Positions 10,729-50,345 of a stretch of DNA of 64,000 nucleotides are shown piece after piece (the first letter of the stretch is position 1; each line of letters opens with the position of its first letter). Source of the DNA: an uncultured Clostridia bacterium (GTDB taxonomy: Bacteria; Bacillota; Clostridia; Lachnospirales; Lachnospiraceae); NCBI GenBank assembly GCA_947385945.1, contig CANDMY010000006.1, positions 1-64,000 on the forward strand, in the 5' to 3' direction. The position numbers and the translations under genes are program-made. Below the pieces are notes generated by a model. That model did no database searches and was not told where the DNA came from. It worked only from the letters and a program-made list of their open reading frames with translations.

Positions 10729-10977
10729 TGGGGGGAGGACGCCAGAGTATGGCATTGCAGTACTGTTTCGCTCTACAGAAAGTAAGAAGCTCTAAGACTT
10801 CTGAATTTAGATGCATCCAACCGGACGGACCGGGGTGCAATTCGCCCGTGCTGCGGGCTAAACACACCCCTTTTTTTGCCATTCAAGAATGGCAAAAAAT
10901 CCTCATGAATCGACAGAAGTCTAAAAGCTTCTAACTTTCCTCCGAAGTCACAGTACTGCAATGCCATACTCTGGCTG
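10729..10977 (-). repeat. F1 structured repeat, copy C (reverse orientation)
   Basis: Reverse complement carries the F1 core. Arms 'tatggcattgcagtact' and 'agtactgcaatgccata' are perfectly complementary. Confidence 0.85.
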
Positions 10978-11070
10978 TCTTTTTCCACAATATAGGTATT
11001 CTTTTTTCTCTTTTTTTGTTTTTTTAATCTATCAAGGAAGTAGCGGAGCGAATTCCGAATTTCCTTTGAC

Positions 11071-11113
11071 TTAATAAAATAAAAGGCAGTTATCTTATCT
11101 TTTGATAACTGCC
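11071..11113 (-). terminator. Intrinsic terminator downstream of tRNA-Leu: hairpin ggcagttatc-aaaagataag-gataactgcc plus a U-tract on the minus strand.
   Basis: Perfect 10-bp stem followed by 'ttttattttatt' on the minus strand. Confidence 0.6.
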
Positions 11114-14965: not shown

Positions 14966-15232
14966 CGCCAGAAAGAACCAGCTGGAGTTTGGAAGCCCTT
15001 TCTCTATGCAGTGACTTCGGAGAAAAGTTAGAAAGTCTTATGCCTCTGTCGATCTCCTAGGATTTTTGCCATCTTCTGATGGCAAAAAAGGGGTGTGTTT
15101 AGCCCGCTGCACGGGCGAATTGCACCCCGGTCCGTCCGGTTGGATATATTTTCATTCAGAGGCATAAGACTTTCTTACTTTTCGGAGAGCGGAACAGCAT
15201 AGAGAAAGGGCTTCCAAACTCCAGCGTCCTCT
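14966..15232 (+). repeat. F1 structured repeat, copy D
   Basis: F1 core with the variant 'gccatcttctgatggc' central hairpin. Its arms 'gtttggaagccctttctctatgca' and 'agcatagagaaagggcttccaaac' are complementary and related to the arms of copy B. Confidence 0.85.
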
Positions 15233-15360
15233 ACACCATCCCCCAGCTTTTCCATCCTAATATCCACACATCATCCCCCAACTTTCCCATCTCAATATCC
15301 ACACCATCCCCCCAACTTTCCCATCTCAGTATCCACACCATTCCCATTCCCCTCAACCTT
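15233..15360. repeat. C-rich tandem repeat of about three copies of a roughly 33-bp unit, 'catcccccaactttcccatctcaatatccacac', appended 3' of F1 copy D.
   Basis: Direct reading. Confidence 0.7.
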
Positions 15361-24832: not shown

Positions 24833-25026
24833 TGTGGTTCTCCTTACCCATAGTGTTACAAACCTGCTTCGATTAATCGAACATATATACGATTGTAGCA
24901 GATTTTCTATTATCTGACAAGACCTTAATTCGAATCGATCGAATAGTAATCTGATTGTTTATAGTGAGCCAGAAAATTATTTATAGTGAGCCGAATGATT
25001 GTTTATGGCGATCCGGACGATTGCAT

Positions 25027-25150
25027 CTGCTGGTGAATCCCTGCTGGGGCCGTTTGCACTAAGGCTTCCTCGCAGCGGACACATAAGGCACGAAAGTACC
25101 GTGCCTAAGTGCCGGCGGGAAGCAATACCCCTGCAGGGATTCACCAGCAG
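25027..25150 (+). repeat. F2 structured repeat, copy 1. Core is 'tgctggggccgtttgcactaaggcttcctcgcagcggacacataaggcacgaaa..accgtgcctaagtgccggcgggaagcaatacccctgca', closed by the variable stem 'ctgctggtgaatccc/gggattcaccagcag'.
   Basis: Core repeated at 25785, 36195 and 36751(-). An internal hairpin 'aggcacg-aaa..ac-cgtgcct' is visible. Confidence 0.85.
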
Positions 25151-25192
25151 CTACAATCTGTCTATCTCAACGGAATGTTTGATAGAATCGCT

Positions 25193-25784: not shown

Positions 25785-25923
25785 GCTCGCCCTAAGGGAT
25801 CTTTCTTTGCTGGGGCCGTTTGCACTAAGGCTTCCTCGCAGCGGACACATAAGGCACGAAAAGACCGTGCCTAAGTGCCGGCGGGAAGCAATACCCCTGC
25901 AAAGAAAGATCCCTTAGGGCGAG
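25785..25923 (+). repeat. F2 structured repeat, copy 2. Closing stem is 'gctcgccctaagggatctttcttt / aagaaagatcccttagggcgagc'.
   Basis: Identical core. A different, perfectly complementary closing stem. Confidence 0.85.
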
Positions 25924-26031
25924 CGTCAGGACTACCCAAAACAATTCTAAATCAAACAATCCCAAACCACTCCAAACAATCGAAACTCTACAATAAATGA
26001 AAAACTTAGTATAAAATATATTATACCTATT

Positions 26032-27459: not shown

Positions 27460-27720
27460 CCTCTCCTTATTTTTTATTTTTCTTCAAGATAGTATCTTCT
27501 TAATCTATCCGAAATATACAAAATTTAATAAGGAGATTTTTTCCACTTTCCTATTGGCACAATTCTTTCTCAATCAAATTATAATTATGTTTTAACTTTA
27601 TCACAGTTTCTTTTTTATCAAATTTATCAAAGAAAGAGACTACTGCAATCAGGTATAACATCCTTTACACAATAGTCTCTTTCCTTTTTATTTCTATTCG
27701 AACTCTTTATTTTTATTTCT

Positions 27721-28443: not shown

Positions 28444-28663
28444 CCTTCTTACCTCTCACTCTATTCATAAAATTTACAAAAAATTCCCGTCCTGCTTTCC
28501 TCTCTTCTCCTAATATATCACGAAATCTGCATTTTCACAACCTGATTTTACATTTTCACAATGCAAATTTCCTTTTTCAACCTAACAATACCCATTCCCA
28601 AGCAGCTCCATCTCGCCTTTTATTCTTTTTATCAATAAAAATACAGGAAAAAACAGCCAGAGT

Positions 28664-28916
28664 TGGGAAGCGATTCTTTTTTGCTGTGACTTCGGAGAAA
28701 AGTTAGAACGTCTTATGCCTCTGTCGATCCACTAGGATTTTTTGCCATTTCCAAATGGCAAAAAAAGGCACGTGTTTAGCCTCCTGCAGAGGCGAATTGC
28801 GTGCCGATCCGTCCGGTTAGATGCACCTAAACTCAGAGGCATTAGCCGTTCTTACTTTTCGGAGAGCGGAACAGCAAAAAAGAATCGCTTCCAAACTCTA
28901 GCGTCCCCCTCCCCCC
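28664..28916 (+). repeat. F1 structured repeat, copy E (divergent core with compensatory changes)
   Basis: Core helix 'ggggtgtg..cgaattgcacccc' becomes 'ggcacgtg..cgaattgcgtgcc'. Helix 'gcccgctgcacgggc' becomes 'gcctcctgcagaggc'. Central hairpin 'gccattcccgaatggc' becomes 'gccatttccaaatggc'. Pairing is preserved in all three. Confidence 0.85.
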
Positions 28917-28941
28917 ATTTCCCTACAAAACCCCCATTTCC

Positions 28942-30456
28942 CTACAAAACCCCCGTATCACTATCCACCTCAAACCAAAATTCCACCCCATTTTCCAAAT
29001 TTCGAACCCCATATTCTTTATGATGAGCTTCCATAATTGCCTTTACAATCGACAGCCCAATCCCGCTCCCTCCATACTCTCTTGTCCGTGCCTTATCCAC
29101 CTTATAAAACTTAATCCAAACCTTCCCCAACTCCTCCTCTGGAATCGGATTCCCTGTATTAAAAACAGACACCCTTACCGTATGCTCATTTTTTGTCAAA
29201 GAAACAACGATCTGCTTCTCTCCGCCTGCATAGTGAATCGCATTACTAATATAATTCGTAACCACTTCCTCTAACTGATACTCATCTCCCCATACAAAAA
29301 CCGGCTCCCGCTGCTCGAATAAAACCGTAATCTTGTCCTGCCTGCATAAAATTTCAACCGACTGAATCACACCCAAAATCAATGCCGTCAAATCAAACCG
29401 CTCCATCGTAATCTGTTCCTGTCCAAATTCTAACTGATTTAAAGTCAGCAGTTTCTTTACCATTTTATTCATTTTATCTGCTTCATCTATAATTACTTCA
29501 CAGTAAAACTCCCTGCTTTCTGCATCCTCATTAATCCCTTCTGCAAGCCCCTCCGCATATCCCTGAATCAATGCAATCGGCGTTTTTAATTCATGAGATA
29601 CATTCGATAAAAATTCCTTCCTTATCTCCTCCATCTGAATCTTCTGCTCAATATCCTTTTGCAGTTCATTATTTGCCGACTTTAATTCAGAAATCGTATG
29701 CTCTAACTTTTTGGAAAGTTCATTCATACTCTGCCCTAACACACCGATTTCATCTTTATCGTGCCGCTCATACTTTGCCTCAAAATCTAAATTAGACATT
29801 TTCCCCGATAATTCTGCCAATTCCAACAAAGGTCTAGTCAAACGCCTAGTAATCGTAATCGAAATCATAATAGCTAAAATACTGACAATTCCTCCCACAT
29901 AGGCAACAAAACGATTGGAAATCTCTACACTTTCCTTTATACTTTCCACCGGAATACGAAGCAGCATATATTCTCTGGTATTAGGCTCCACCCCGAATAA
30001 TTCCAAAAAATTAGTCGAATAGCGACTATCTTTATTTCGAAAAATACTATAATCCTCTTCCCTTTTTAAAGTCACCGCACTATTCTCAATTCCAAATAAA
30101 TAAGGCATTACCAAATCCTGCAGGGTCTGTACATTGTGCACATTATAATAGACTGGTTTTAACATTCCTGTATTGGCATCCAAAATAATAAATGTAATAT
30201 TGGATTTTTGGCACAACCCCTCTAACTCCAATGCTACCTCATCCGCCTTTTTATTACTCTGTACCAATTCACACATACTCACATAAGCATTTTCCAATTT
30301 TGTCTGTTTACTAATTAAATAATAATCTTCTAAAAATCGATTATTAATCAATAAAAGCAAAAAAACTGTACCAAAAGTCGCAAATAACATTAATGCTATT
30401 ATTTTGGTTCGAATAGAATATTGTATTTTCCCTACTAAACCTGCTATTTTACTCAT
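28942..30456 (-). CDS. Sensor histidine kinase (TM, HAMP, HisKA, HATPase_c)
   Basis: H-box 'SHELKTP'. N, G1 and G2 boxes 'GGSGIGLSIVKAI'. Two TM helices flank an extracytoplasmic domain. Confidence 0.85.
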   Translation of the reverse strand: MSKIAGLVGKIQYSIRTKIIALMLFATFGTVFLLLLINNRFLEDYYLISKQTKLENAYVSMCELVQSNKKADEVALELEGLCQKSNITFIILDANTGMLKPVYYNVHNVQTLQDLVMPYLFGIENSAVTLKREEDYSIFRNKDSRYSTNFLELFGVEPNTREYMLLRIPVESIKESVEISNRFVAYVGGIVSILAIMISITITRRLTRPLLELAELSGKMSNLDFEAKYERHDKDEIGVLGQSMNELSKKLEHTISELKSANNELQKDIEQKIQMEEIRKEFLSNVSHELKTPIALIQGYAEGLAEGINEDAESREFYCEVIIDEADKMNKMVKKLLTLNQLEFGQEQITMERFDLTALILGVIQSVEILCRQDKITVLFEQREPVFVWGDEYQLEEVVTNYISNAIHYAGGEKQIVVSLTKNEHTVRVSVFNTGNPIPEEELGKVWIKFYKVDKARTREYGGSGIGLSIVKAIMEAHHKEYGVRNLENGVEFWFEVDSDTGVL

Positions 30457-31248: not shown

Positions 31249-31863
31249 TTAATTTTGTGAATCTTTCCCGAAAAGTTCCTTTTCTTTTGCCTTTAATTCT
31301 TTTTCCCTTTCTTTTAATTCTGCTTCTTTCTGCTGTAAATCTTTTTCCCATGATATATATTTATTAATCAGTGTATTCTCATAATTTAATATATTGACAT
31401 GATTACTATTTAGTGTAATATAAGCCATAATCAATATAGCAGCAATCAACAAAATATTTAAAATAAGGGCATGATAATATTTCTGCCGATAATAAAGACT
31501 TGTATTTTTTTTATTTTTCTGAGCAATTCGTTCTTCTTTTTCCGCTCTGTCCCTCTCTCTTACCCGCAGCCACTGTTCATCCTCTAACTGAAATCCATAT
31601 ATTCTCTGATTCTCGATCTCTTTTGCCTCTAACAACCGCTCTTTCCATTCCCTTAAAAATTTTGTCCCAACTTCTGTTTTCAATATATTGCGTTCTGCCA
31701 ATTTATTATATACAGCAAGTGCAACCTCCATATTTTCCATATCATTTTGCGACAAAATATACTGTATCCCTTCCCACTCTTTTTTTGCCTTTTTCGCTTC
31801 CACCGGATCTCTGTAAGTAATCCCGTAAATGGTTTCTCCTTTAGCCATACCGCTTTTCTCCAT
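31249..31863 (-). CDS. Hypothetical membrane protein (single TM, coiled-coil C-terminus)
   Basis: ORF with a central hydrophobic helix 'ALILNILLIAAILIMAYITL'. No recognised domain. Confidence 0.5.
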   Translation of the reverse strand: MEKSGMAKGETIYGITYRDPVEAKKAKKEWEGIQYILSQNDMENMEVALAVYNKLAERNILKTEVGTKFLREWKERLLEAKEIENQRIYGFQLEDEQWLRVRERDRAEKEERIAQKNKKNTSLYYRQKYYHALILNILLIAAILIMAYITLNSNHVNILNYENTLINKYISWEKDLQQKEAELKEREKELKAKEKELFGKDSQN

Positions 31864-31873
31864 TTCTTTTAGT

Positions 31874-32036
31874 CAAAGGAAATAAGGAAATTCGGAATCT
31901 GCTCCTTCCTCATAATCCTATGCTGCTATCGCTGCTTGTCAGATGGAACTTGCCCCCAACTGACACAAGGAAGTCCCCCAACCCACCGCTTTCGCCTTCA
32001 CGGCTTAGAAGCAGAGGACCTCCTTGATAGGTTAAA
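31874..32036 (+). repeat. F3 structured repeat, copy 3 (diverged)
   Basis: Shares F3 hairpins 'gctgctatcgctgc' and 'aagtccccc..', and the 3' end 'ccttgataggttaaaa'. Confidence 0.75.
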
Positions 32037-32085
32037 AAACACAAAAGCCCCGGATCTCTCCGGGACTTACTCTGCCGCAAAATCA

Positions 32086-36051: not shown

Positions 36052-36194
36052 TACTCTCTCCTCCAATACTCTAATTTTACCAAGAGTATTTCCCTAATTT
36101 TCAAGGCTTATTCAATTTCTAAAGAAAAGTTATCAGAAAAAAGGAAAACCACTTCAGCAATTATAAACCAGATATTGGTATTGTAGAACCGGAC

Positions 36195-36334
36195 GCAGGT
36201 AGCATAGAGAGATTCTTTGCTGGGGCCGTTTGCACTAAGGCTTCCTCGCAGCGGACACATAAGGCACGAAAAGACCGTGCCTAAGTGCCGGCGGGAAGCA
36301 ATACCCCTGCAAAGAATCTCTCTATGCTACCCGC
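36195..36334 (+). repeat. F2 structured repeat, copy 3. Closing stem is 'gcaggtagcatagagagattcttt / aaagaatctctctatgctacccgc'.
   Basis: Identical F2 core. Confidence 0.85.
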
Positions 36335-36336
36335 TG

Positions 36337-36545
36337 TTTCGTTCCCCCTAGAAATAATGCCTCATAAACATTTTTATTCTACCTGTTGGTTTATTCCTCC
36401 TGGAAACAATACCTCACAAACATTTTTACTCTGCCTATTAACTTGTTCCTCCTGGAAATGATACTTCACAAAAATATTTTATTCGGTCTGCTGGTTTATT
36501 CCTCCTAAAAACAACGCCCCGTAAAAATTCTCTACTCCGACTGTT
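36337..36545. repeat. Tandem repeat of about 3.5 copies of a roughly 60-bp unit ('...ttattcctcctggaaacaatacctcacaaacatttttactctgcctgttgg...')
   Basis: Direct reading. Degenerate periodicity of about 59-62 bp. Confidence 0.75.
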
Positions 36546-36546
36546 G

Positions 36547-36678
36547 GAATTCAAAAGAAATTTGTAATCCTATGCTGCTATCGCAGCTTGTCAAATAGGG
36601 CTTGTACCCCACCTGCCCCCAACCCACCGCTTTCGCCTTGGCGGCTTAGAAGCGGGGGACTTCCTTGATGAGGTTAAA
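36547..36678 (+). repeat. F3 structured repeat, copy 4
   Basis: Contains 'gctgctatcgcagc' and 'cgccttggcggcttagaagcgggggacttccttgatgaggttaaa'. Confidence 0.8.
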
Positions 36679-36750
36679 CTATCTAAAATCACACAAAAAC
36701 GGTTTTAATCAACCAAAATACTGCGACTGTTCCGGTTGGAATATACAGCT

Positions 36751-36884
36751 GACACCACTGGATGAATCTCTGCAGGGGTATTGCTTCCCGCCGGCACTTA
36801 GGCACGGTCTTTTCGTGCCTTATGTGTCCGCTGCGAGGAAGCCTTAGTGCAAACGGCCCCAGCAGAGATTCATCCAGTGGTGTC
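36751..36884 (-). repeat. F2 structured repeat, copy 4 (inverted relative to copy 3). It is followed by a twice-repeated 'gatgtcagcgtccccccaaca'.
   Basis: Reverse complement of the F2 core. Closing stem 'gacaccactggatgaatctct / agagattcatccagtggtgtc'. Confidence 0.85.
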
Positions 36885-36962
36885 AGCGTCCCCCCAACAG
36901 AAAATCACCCAATGATGTCAGCGTCCCCCCAACATATATTCGTTTAAATTCAAATCATTCGC

Positions 36963-44227: not shown

Positions 44228-44470
44228 GGAAATAACGCCAGAGTACTTGAAAGGGAACTGTTCCGCTCTCCGAAAAGCAGAAGCTCTAAGACTTCTGAAT
44301 CTAGGCATATCCAACCGGACGGATCGGGGTGCAATTCGCCCGTACAGCGGGCTAAACACACCCCTTTTTTTGCCATTCGAGAATGGCAAAAAATCCTAGT
44401 GGATTGACAGAAGTCTAAGAGCTTCTAACTTTCCTCCGAAGTCACAGTTCCCTTTCAAGTACTCTGGCTG
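44228..44470 (-). repeat. F1 structured repeat, copy F (reverse orientation)
   Basis: Reverse complement carries the F1 core. Arms 'tacttgaaagggaact' and 'agttccctttcaagta' are complementary. Confidence 0.85.
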
Positions 44471-44965
44471 TATTGTCTCACAATCTACTTTTTTTCTCTT
44501 TGCTCCATTATATTCTTATTCTTTTTTGTTAAATTTCCTTCTTTCTTTTTTTATTAAAAATAATTTTAGAATTTTTGCATTGGTCAAAGCGGATTGCGAA
44601 TATCCGATTTGACTATCCCTATCAGACATTTCTCTATATCAGCCGTAATCATTTTATGCTTGTATTTTACACACCAAACAATATGATATTGGATGGAATA
44701 TACCTATCCACGTCCATGAGTCACTTCCATATAGAATCACCTCGTTATACAAACGATAATAGATGTATGTTGTTATATCAATTATTTTTAGCATTATTAC
44801 TTGAAATTTAATTAACATATGTGAGCAATTCATCCCACGACTAAATGCTCATGTACGGTAAAGAAACAAGAAACCGAAAACAAGAGATAGACCTCCAGCA
44901 CCACACTATTCCGAACCAAAGACCAAAAGACAAGCATGATGGAATCCCTCTCTCATTCCTTTATG

Positions 44966-49183: not shown

Positions 49184-49563
49184 AAAAAACTCCTTTCCAA
49201 ACAAAAAAACACTAAACATACAATATGTCCAGTGCACTTCTAAAACCATCGGCTATTGCAAATATAATTACAACTTACACCTACTAATTTATATGCACAG
49301 ACATATCAGACCTACCTGCGTAACTGTGCATCCAATCAAAAACACAATTACTTCTAAGTACGTCTGTCATACATGTACATATCATTCATTGTAAAATGTA
49401 AGTTCTGCATTTTCACGTTCTCCTAAACTTTTTTAATAACTTACCATAATTCTATTTATATGTCAAGAAATATTTCTGAAACGAACCATATAACTTTATT
49501 TTTGATTTTAAAATATATATCATTCATTCCATATCAACCCCAAACCAACAGTCAAATCGGATA

Positions 49564-49716
49564 TTCGCAATCCGCTTTGCTACTTGCTCATAACCTCATA
49601 GCTTCTATCGCAGCTTTTCAGTGGGAGTCTGCACTCCCACTGAAACAAAGAAGTCCCAACCCACCGCTTTCGCCTTGGCGGTTTAGAAGCGGGGGACTTC
49701 CTTGATGAGGTTAAAC
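49564..49716 (+). repeat. F3 structured repeat, copy 5 (near-identical to copy 1)
   Basis: 'aatcggatattcgcaatccgctttgctacttgctcataacctcatagc...cttgatgaggttaaa'. Confidence 0.85.
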
Positions 49717-49866
49717 AACCCTTTACCTGCCTAATACCAAACTTCAAAGAAAATAATCCTATTCCAAAAAACCAAATAAACTTTTACACTATCTTTGAAA
49801 AAAGAAAAGCAAAGTAACAAAGAAGACATTCTCTTTCCCCTCTGCATTTCTTACCTTTAAAATATC

Positions 49867-49946
49867 AAAGGAAATTCGGAATCCGCTCCGCTGCCTCCTC
49901 ATAATCCTATCCTGCGTCAAATAGGACTTCCTTAATAGATTAAAAA
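49867..49946 (+). repeat. F3 structured repeat, copy 6 (short or deleted form)
   Basis: 'ggaaattcggaatccgctccgct..ctcataatcctatcctgcg...cttccttaatagattaaaa'. Confidence 0.6.
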
Positions 49947-49999
49947 CAAAAAACTCTACAGATGAATGAATCAACTCTAACCTTACAGGCAGGAAAAGA

Positions 50000-50256
50000 C
50001 AGCCAGAGTGGGAAAGCCATTTCTTCCCGCTGTGACTTCGGAGGAAAGTTAGAATGTCTTATGCTTCTGTCGATCCACTAGGATTTTTTGCCATTCTCGA
50101 ATGGCAAAAAAAGGGGTGTGTTTAGCCCGCAGCACGGGCGAATTGCACCCCGGTCCGTCCGGCTGGATGCACCTATCCCCAGAAGCATTAGACATTCTTA
50201 CTTTCCGCAGAGCGGAACAGCGGGAAGAAATGGCTTTCCCACTCTAGCGTCCTCCC
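50000..50256 (+). repeat. F1 structured repeat, copy G
   Basis: F1 core. Arms 'tgggaaagccatttcttcccgct' and 'agcgggaagaaatggctttccca' are complementary. Confidence 0.85.
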
Positions 50257-50345
50257 CTTCCCCACTCTAGCGTCCTCCCCTTCCCCACTCCAGCGTTCTC
50301 CCCTTCCCCGCTCCAACATCCTCCCCCCAATCCCCTCACTCTCAC
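50241..50345. repeat. C-rich tandem repeat, '(c)cactctagcgtcctccccttcc' in 3-4 copies, extending the 3' terminus of F1 copy G
   Basis: Direct reading. Confidence 0.75.

Follow-up and report, generated by a model that had tools for sequence, protein, structure and literature searches.

The window analyzed in this study, which is the whole 64,000-nucleotide stretch of contig CANDMY010000006.1, contained seven copies (A–G) of a structured repeat, all of which were intergenic. Their positions and those of the other features are listed in Table 1. Copy E was found between a sensor-kinase gene that reads toward it and the next gene, whose promoter-like sites were beyond copy E, at 28580–28512. The stop codon of the sensor-kinase gene was 33 nt from the 3′ end of copy E, and no other terminator-like site was found in the intergenic region of copy E. 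The tandem repeat directly 3′ of copy E had two units in the window and one unit in three other strains. Four other assemblies also carried copy E at this position, with three substitutions. The preliminary description had placed the element at 28664–28916, which was slightly off. With the seven-copy seed HMM, nhmmer matched copy E over model positions 2–261 (E = 7e-84), and its actual extent is given in Table 1.

Nearly all genes of the window were on the minus strand and the plus-strand GC skew was about -0.35. The skew was about zero at 44–48 kb, where plus-strand genes form a block that may be an acquired or inverted segment. Around the locus of copy E, four of five assemblies (L108–L111, ~3724–6700) carried an extra N6/N4 DNA methyltransferase gene and an extra 293-aa gene between the gene for a 240-aa protein and the GerA gene (compare 27460–27720 of the window). 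Both extra genes were missing from the strain of the window and from the assembly L112, and this difference is probably a strain-variable restriction-modification insertion.

Table 1. Positions of the repeat copies, the parts and neighbours of copy E, and associated features in the window.
Feature	Position	Strand	Basis or remark
Copy A, long class	191..449	+	HMM
F2 repeat	2020-2200, 31850-32045, 36555-36690, 49540-49725		starts GAGTCAAATCGGATATTCGCAATCCGC, ends GGGGGACTTCCTTGATGAGGTTAAA
Copy B, long class	4828..5084	+	HMM; RF01731 match 4868-5042(+)
Copy C, short class	10734..10981	-	HMM; RF01731 match 10771-10946(-)
F2 fragments	11035-11078, 44585-44614, 49841-49904		
Copy D, long class	14975..15232	+	HMM
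F3 structured repeat	25005-25180, 25785-25935, 36185-36345, 36730-36900		invariant core ~86 nt
Copy E, long class, 260 nt, very probably TwoAYGGAY-class	28650..28909	+	nhmmer and RNA fold
Copy E, elongated basal (outer) stem, 5′ arm	28656..28687	+	pairs with 28871-28902
Copy E, inner domain, CTTCGGAG to CGGAGAGC	28690..28867	+	homologous to the RF01731-matched stretch of copies B and C
Copy E, hairpin H7, TTTTTTGCCATTT-CC-AAATGGCAAAAAAA	28738..28766	+	fold and family alignment
Copy E, contiguous 39-nt E-type module, H8 enclosing H9	28767..28805	+	H8, 28767-28774 with 28798-28805; H9, 28779-28793
Copy E, basal stem, 3′ arm	28871..28902	+	followed by conserved tail GCGTCC
21-nt tandem repeat directly 3′ of copy E	28906..28950	+	two units
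HAMP/HisKA/HATPase sensor kinase gene, upstream gene of copy E	28942..30456	-	reads toward copy E
Copy F, short class, altered 3′ tail	44240..44473	-	HMM
tnpA remnant, 31 codons (VYSIQYHIVWCVKYKHKMITADIEKCLIGIV)	44605-44703	-	resembles N-terminus of IS200/IS605 Y1 TnpA
Copy G, long class	49996..50255	+	HMM; 3′ terminus tandemly repeated at 50234-50325

Folded as RNA (-124.6 kcal/mol, z = -10.9), copy E was predicted to form a rod with a branched tip, the ends of which pair over ~32 nt, and the opposite strand folded about equally well. The GCGTCC tail of copy E (28901–28906) overlaps the last two bases of the 3′ arm of the basal stem and was nearly invariant in the alignment of 117 copies, while the sequence of the basal stem differed strongly between copies.

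It had been reported previously for this locus that three core helices of copy E change in sequence and keep their pairing. All helix strings quoted were found in the window, and the changed helices of copy E stay complementary. In H8 of copy E, GGCACGTG (28767–28774) pairs with TGCGTGCC (28798–28805), and the corresponding arms elsewhere in other copies are GGGGTGTG/TGCACCCC. H9 is GCCTC-CTGCA-GAGGC (28779–28793) in copy E and GCCCG-CTGCA-CGGGC elsewhere, and H7 is GCCATTT-CC-AAATGGC (28744–28759) in copy E and GCCATTC-CCG-GAATGGC in copy A. The pseudo-ORF that overlaps these helices also changes as described, with FSLLQRRIACRS in copy E vs. FSPLHGRIAPRS in copy A. Compared with the family consensus, 13 of the 67 predicted pairs differed in copy E; 11 of the 13 still pair, 10 of them by two-sided change, and the two broken pairs are both in the outer stem.

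The changes had been described as those of this copy. They are indeed present in copy E but are not private to it and are common to other copies. E-type H8 and E-type H9 were each found in 19 of the 117 copies, the two together form a contiguous 39-nt block that ~19 copies have in common, and E-type H7 was common to several other copies in the same alignment. In ~23 copies H7 was replaced by a hairpin of the GGGCAC/GTGCCC type. As the E-type variants are common to many copies, they record few independent events, and the core changes of copy E are not independent events because they were inherited as one contiguous block. The E-type three-helix change is thus a common variant module that was spread by descent or gene conversion between copies.

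Ten H8 variants and four H9 variants were seen, and all were fully complementary except for two singletons; an H8 mismatch occurred in two singleton copies only. Among the variants were the paired intermediates GCCCC/GGGGC and GGTACG/CGTACC, the further compensated H8 forms GGCGTG/CACGCC, GGGATG/CATCCC, and GGGGGGC/GCCCCCC, and one recombinant (L049) in which E-type H9 is combined with standard H8. More compensated H8 forms, GGTGCG/CGCACC, GGAGCG/CGCTCC, and GGGGCG/CGCCCC, were identified from a second species. Both hairpins are expanded in this species, H9 by an insertion of ~60 nt, and the helices stay compensated. Variable peripheral stems are typical of structured RNAs, and the hairpin expansion in the second species fits this pattern.

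The fold of the family was assessed with an alignment of 117 distinct copies, in which the pairs were predicted by RNAalifold. Across the copies, a long basal stem closes two hairpins. On the forward strand (5′ ACAGCC...GCGTCC 3′), a basal stem of ~30 bp is followed by a second long helix and then by the two-hairpin junction. Compensatory double changes were found in 39 of the 67 predicted pairs. Of the pair cells in the alignment, 98.6% held standard pairs, vs. 86.3% in column shuffles, none of which reached the observed value (0/500), and 39–47% when partners were slid by 1–3 columns as a control. The covariation score was 0.363, compared with at most 0.071 in the slid controls. In this larger alignment the pairing was therefore far beyond chance by both controls. 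Helices 1–5 were 97–99% paired, with two-sided change in 8 of the 10 pairs of helix 1, and the outer stem was highly variable in sequence and length, yet 97% paired. Helix 7 had double changes in 5 of 8 pairs and was 98.5% paired, and helices 8 and 9 were 99.8–100% paired. The basal stem that closes the two sequential hairpins was supported by covariation (helices 6–9). Moreover, the column pairs with the highest mutual information were those of the predicted helices, and no pseudoknot pairs beyond these helices were found by mutual information in the copy alignment.

Many of the unpaired columns were invariant and others, such as columns 183–199, varied freely. Given that invariant unpaired columns lie beside freely varying ones, the conservation is selective and does not merely reflect a recent origin. 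GGA motifs were kept at five unpaired sites in 62–98% of copies, i.e., UUCGGAG twice, CUAGGAU, YUGGAU, and GCGGAAC. A role as a guide complementary to the flanks was sought for the hypervariable single-stranded segment (columns 183–199) and for the outer arm, for which a copy's own flanks scored no better than the flanks of other copies; the exception was a doublet partner that carries the same segment.

The pairing pattern had been proposed to reflect selection for secondary structure and not for coding. This proposal was supported by stop codons in every frame of every window copy, by the compensated variants, by the second species, and by the match to an Rfam model presented below. Length-changing indels between copies were also not multiples of three. 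Given the compensated variants, their intermediates, and the forms of the second species, the inference of selection for pairing holds. Much of the covariation signal, however, stems from variants that subfamilies inherited and not from independent changes, and the pairing data by themselves do not tell folding as RNA apart from folding as single-stranded DNA.

A search of a species-representative genome collection with a conserved 21-mer recovered 107 stretches. Nearly all were from MGBC128194, a Lachnospiraceae MAG from the mouse gut with contigs of ~99% identity to the window, and three were from a second Lachnospiraceae MAG. The seven-copy HMM gave 187 non-overlapping matches and 119 distinct full-length copies, and the genome has ~170 copies. 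No match to the family was found in plasmid and phage collections, and the single match from a scan of viral contigs contained no family match by nhmmer. In a metagenome scan, true homologs were limited to six contigs, all from ERZ7796xx assemblies, and the other 36 matches were chance ones.

The copies fell into a long class of 252–265 nt and a short class of 238–248 nt, which differ in outer-stem length. The 5′ leader and the 3′ trailer are conserved within each class and distinct between the two. Relative to GC skew, genomic orientation was 55:12 for the long class and 10:32 for the short class. The long class was mostly antisense to the flanking genes, and the short class was mostly sense (32:10). 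The 3′ end of the long class had a median distance of 52 nt to the nearest gene end, i.e., the stop codon of a gene that runs toward the copy, and copy E follows this placement rule, as it is 33 nt from the sensor-kinase stop. The short class preceded a start codon in the same sense by ~190 nt. Neighbouring copies within 3 kb were divergent in 52 of 53 pairs, with gaps of 68–1780 nt. Along the direction of transcription, the order in a doublet is upstream gene, long copy, spacer, short copy, and downstream gene, where the long copy is read as its reverse complement and ends in UGUUUUUUCC. The second species had the same divergent arrangement, but none of its copies was found at a site orthologous to one in the first species. 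In many copies of the short class, the leader resembles an extended -10 element (TGTGGnACAAT) and the trailer is T-rich, which together suggest the anatomy of a small RNA gene. A sigma-70 promoter scan found no convincing promoter ahead of the long class.

The modules of the element, i.e., outer-stem class, helix-6 variants, H7 type, and H8/H9 type, occurred in many combinations, which points to recombination or gene conversion between copies, and doublet partners often had the same otherwise hypervariable segment. Tandem repeats at the 3′ side were common and often copied the element's own terminus; such repeats were also found beside copies D and G. Intergenic tandem repeats of 21–66 nt adjoined structured repeats at 1–198, 15240–15342, 28906–28950, 36320–36529, and 50234–50325 of the window, and their unit number varied between strains at the loci of copies E and D.

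With permissive filters, three copies were found to match the Rfam model RF01731 (TwoAYGGAY RNA; gathering score, 43 bits) over all of its 168 positions. They were copy C at 66.5 bits, copy B at 63.7 bits, and the copy L092 from a related MAG at 55.4 bits (5246–5419, minus strand). All three matches are on the forward strand of the element and span the inner domain from CUUCGGAG to CGGAGAGC. Copy E had no match to RF01731 at E ≤ 10 when 28500–29050 and 28640–28925 were searched with speed filters on. Copy E is, however, ~80% matched to copy C over 191 nt. As a homolog of copies B and C, it therefore belongs to the family in a diverged form, which the RF01731 model or its filters miss. A gathering-threshold Rfam scan of the window with default filters detected none of the seven copies. 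The default speed filters miss copies B and C, though both score at least 20 bits above the gathering threshold. As all seven window copies were missed in this way, such elements will be under-annotated in gut Bacillota. Judged by the model matches of copies B, C, and L092, the repeat family is TwoAYGGAY RNA, i.e., a known, catalogued structured RNA family and not a new one. The subfamily is a lineage-specific, highly amplified Bacillota form with an elongated basal stem, and its host is a mouse-gut Lachnospiraceae species. Copy E is very probably an element of the TwoAYGGAY class in which selection maintains the pairing of the helices.

In 2010, TwoAYGGAY was reported from the human gut, gamma-Proteobacteria, and Clostridiales and was considered to be probably an RNA, without a cis-regulatory role (Weinberg et al., 2010; PMC2864571). 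Binding of CsrA was proposed as its role in 2015 (PMC4333381). Genomes of Pseudomonas contain multiple copies of TwoAYGGAY (up to 202), with an enrichment of doublets; 68.4% of the doublets are divergent, and their median gap is 249 bp (Li et al., 2026 preprint, bioRxiv 10.64898/2026.09.22.753630). The Pseudomonas copies are flanked by repeat arrays, with REP arrays at a fixed neighbouring position; Bacillota copies have an elongated basal stem, two AYGGAY motifs are described in the hairpin terminal loops, and a mobile-element-like expansion was suggested by the authors (10.64898/2026.09.22.753630).

Similar to these descriptions, the repeat studied here has full-length, forward-strand model matches (copies B, C, and L092), a basal stem that closes two sequential hairpins, a Clostridia-class gut host, many copies, an excess of divergent doublets, flanking tandem repeats, and the elongated basal stem of Bacillota. 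H7 and H8/H9 are aligned by cmscan to the two hairpins of the RF01731 model. UUCGGAG occurs twice in the internal loop of the basal stem, and cmscan aligns the 5′ one to UAUGGAAG of the model. Different from the published descriptions, the GGA motifs of copy E are in internal loops and junctions, and its hairpin loops, CC and CUGCA, contain neither AYGGAY nor GGA. Moreover, the Rfam model fails to recognize copy E and most of the long class, the doublets are almost all divergent (52/53) vs. 68% in Pseudomonas, there are two classes with distinct leaders and trailers and a fixed placement to the flanking genes, and the copy number of ~170 belongs to a Lachnospiraceae genome. Since 2010, TwoAYGGAY has remained an orphan among the structured RNAs, for which a Lachnospiraceae genome with ~170 copies is a dense natural dataset. 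The two gene-anchored classes of this genome, its nearly purely divergent doublets, and a sibling family with the same termini could help decide whether TwoAYGGAY acts as a regulatory RNA, moves as a hairpin, or does both.

In 107 of 119 copies, the better fold was that of the forward strand and not of its complement. Because this difference partly reflects orientation-linked mutation bias, the copies were split by orientation. In the inner helices, forward-strand G.U was then 7–10 times commoner than A.C in both groups (33/2156 vs. 7/3185; 15/3185 vs. 1/2156). The outer stem was strand-symmetric and had no strand preference. Both the G.U bias and the strand on which Rfam matched point to an RNA from the forward strand, with the reservation that G.T in single-stranded DNA could mimic the bias. 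RNA would then be made from the forward strand of the element, and its conserved unpaired GGA motifs, several in number, might be shown to a binding protein, such as a CsrA-type regulator. The family may have spread by a mobile-element-like process. For the long class, the opposite strand would probably, with its hairpin and U-tract, also terminate the transcript of the upstream gene. As a working model, of which we are much less sure than of the structure, the element is a protein-binding RNA with GGA motifs (a CsrA-type decoy) that spread like a mobile element. Similar to CsrB and RsmZ, multiple conserved GGA motifs are presented here on a structured scaffold. However, the known sponges show GGA in hairpin loops and have one or few genes per genome, and CsrA binding is only predicted here. 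Searches by tblastn with CsrA and FliW found neither csrA nor fliW in ~1 Mb of sequence, which is part of the genome.

It is possible, though we think it unlikely, that the element is instead a DNA hairpin of the REPIN or IS200/IS605-PATE type, of which the folded single-stranded form is the substrate of a Y1/HUH transposase and the RNA is incidental. Pairing would then be kept by the propagation of foldable copies or by template-switching correction of quasi-palindromes. The high copy number, the strictly divergent doublets, and the variable segments that partner copies have in common fit such a hairpin. So do the mismatches of the outer stem, which are strand-symmetric and follow replication/skew orientation, and the orientation bias relative to GC skew, although the opposite biases of the two classes speak against it. 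Target-site duplications are not expected for Y1 elements, and no k-mer duplication above the null was found at any offset in 106 copies. A tnpA(Y1) remnant is beside copy F, and a family with an unrelated core, F3, has the same termini (ACAGC...GCGTCC). Furthermore, Pseudomonas REP arrays are found at a fixed position beside TwoAYGGAY (10.64898/2026.09.22.753630) and REPIN hairpins are known for compensatory changes (PMC3116915). Against a DNA hairpin, the inner helices accept forward G.U and not A.C, even where mutation bias favours A.C (as noted, G.T could mimic this), and the unpaired motifs are conserved well past the needs of a hairpin substrate. In addition, ~1 Mb of sequence contained no intact Y1 transposase. 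Insertion polymorphism was also not seen: the five strains compared all carry copy E at the same site, and no empty site was found at the loci of copies E, D, and G in any strain assembly retrieved.

REPINs/BIMEs, which are REP doublets mobilised by RAYT Y1 transposases, are likewise intergenic, occur in hundreds of copies, form inverted doublets of two unit types with a spacer, have no target-site duplications, and consist of hairpin-forming units in which compensatory changes are common (PMC3116915). The units here, however, are ~250 nt with a branched core vs. 20–40 nt in REPINs (PMC3116915), each unit is a complete hairpin, and no RAYT was identified in ~1 Mb. bcr1 of the Bacillus cereus group and Correia/ERIC-type MITEs are also interspersed intergenic repeats of 100–300 nt, and bcr1 is transcribed and keeps its RNA structure by compensatory changes (PMC3184786). 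bcr1 differs in having 5-bp direct repeats and a strain-variable distribution (PMC3184786), whereas here duplications were not found and the insertions were fixed among the strains compared. The element did not fit a classical MITE either: target-site duplications were not found (106 copies), and an autonomous partner IS with the same terminal inverted repeats was not seen in the sequence examined.

The reverse complement of the element forms a giant hairpin followed by UGUUUUUUCC, which raises the question of whether the element is mainly a repeated factor-independent terminator or insulator, with pairing selected for ending the upstream transcript alone, as in SPRITE-like elements. We regard this as rather doubtful. 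In 26 of 42 long-class copies, a gene runs toward the 3′ end and stops at a median of 52–83 nt from it, and the conserved A-rich 5′ leader GGAAAAAACAGC is a U-tract on the other strand. The position of the next gene's promoter-like sites beyond copy E and the lack of another terminator-like site in its intergenic region also agree with a terminator. This function nevertheless leaves the invariant unpaired motifs, the two internal hairpins, and the forward-strand G.U bias of the inner helices unexplained. The RF01731 matches are on the forward strand, and the short class has the opposite orientation and its own T-rich trailer. Similar to SPRITE, a rho-independent-terminator-like repeat of pneumococci, the repeat follows genes and has a hairpin and a U-tract; different from SPRITE, it resembles a terminator on the strand opposite to that of the conserved RNA fold, and its size is much greater.

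The pattern of copy E could also be a single ancestral block that was copied by gene conversion, without ongoing selection and with little information content. The contiguous 39-nt H8/H9 variant in ~19 copies of differing backgrounds and the free recombination of modules between copies fit this possibility, but several independent compensated variants with stepwise intermediates, and three more in the second species, make it improbable, as do helix halves 120–230 nt apart that covary despite the shuffling of interior modules. Finally, that the region encodes a small protein, for which a 93-aa ORF overlapping copy E is listed at 28742–29023, can be dismissed, as at least one stop codon interrupts every frame of every window copy, indels do not keep the frame, and substitutions track base pairs and not codons.

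TwoAYGGAY was accompanied in the window by two further repeat families, F2 and F3. In F3, a basal stem of 20–30 bp that is hypervariable and perfectly complementary encloses the core. Except for the copy at 25005–25180, F3 mostly has the same termini as TwoAYGGAY (ACAGC-stem...stem-GCGTCC). In the copy at 25785–25935, which was also found in another strain, the core is inverted relative to the termini. The F3 core gave 15 BLAST matches, some of them partial, in the window and the other loci examined, and F3 had no match in Rfam. Conceivably, TwoAYGGAY and F3 are cargo hairpins that have a mobility or processing module in common, made up of ACAGC...GCGTCC and a basal stem free in sequence, on which a Y1/HUH enzyme would act in folded single-stranded DNA; we hold this to be quite unlikely. 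The enzyme may be IS200/IS605 or RAYT-like, and the different structured-RNA cores may be its payload. If true, cargo hairpins would explain the divergent doublets, the repeated 3′ termini, the link to the Pseudomonas REP arrays, and the IS200-derived remnants found here.

F2 was predicted to form several hairpins and was often just upstream of the 5′ leaders of TwoAYGGAY. Its Rfam matches were weak and below threshold (ohsC and RAGATH-25). Some 130 nt separate the tnpA remnant from copy F, which is downstream of it. A stop codon precedes the remnant, and the initial 30 nt of an F2 repeat follow it directly. In one metagenomic contig (L124; ERZ779633.2101), a TwoAYGGAY copy was split into 410–538 and 2135–2216 by an insertion of ~1.6 kb with terminal inverted repeats (CATAGGTGAGAACTTAAG...) and a duplicated TGTTTAGCCC. 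The insertion therefore resembles an IS element that has inserted into the core.
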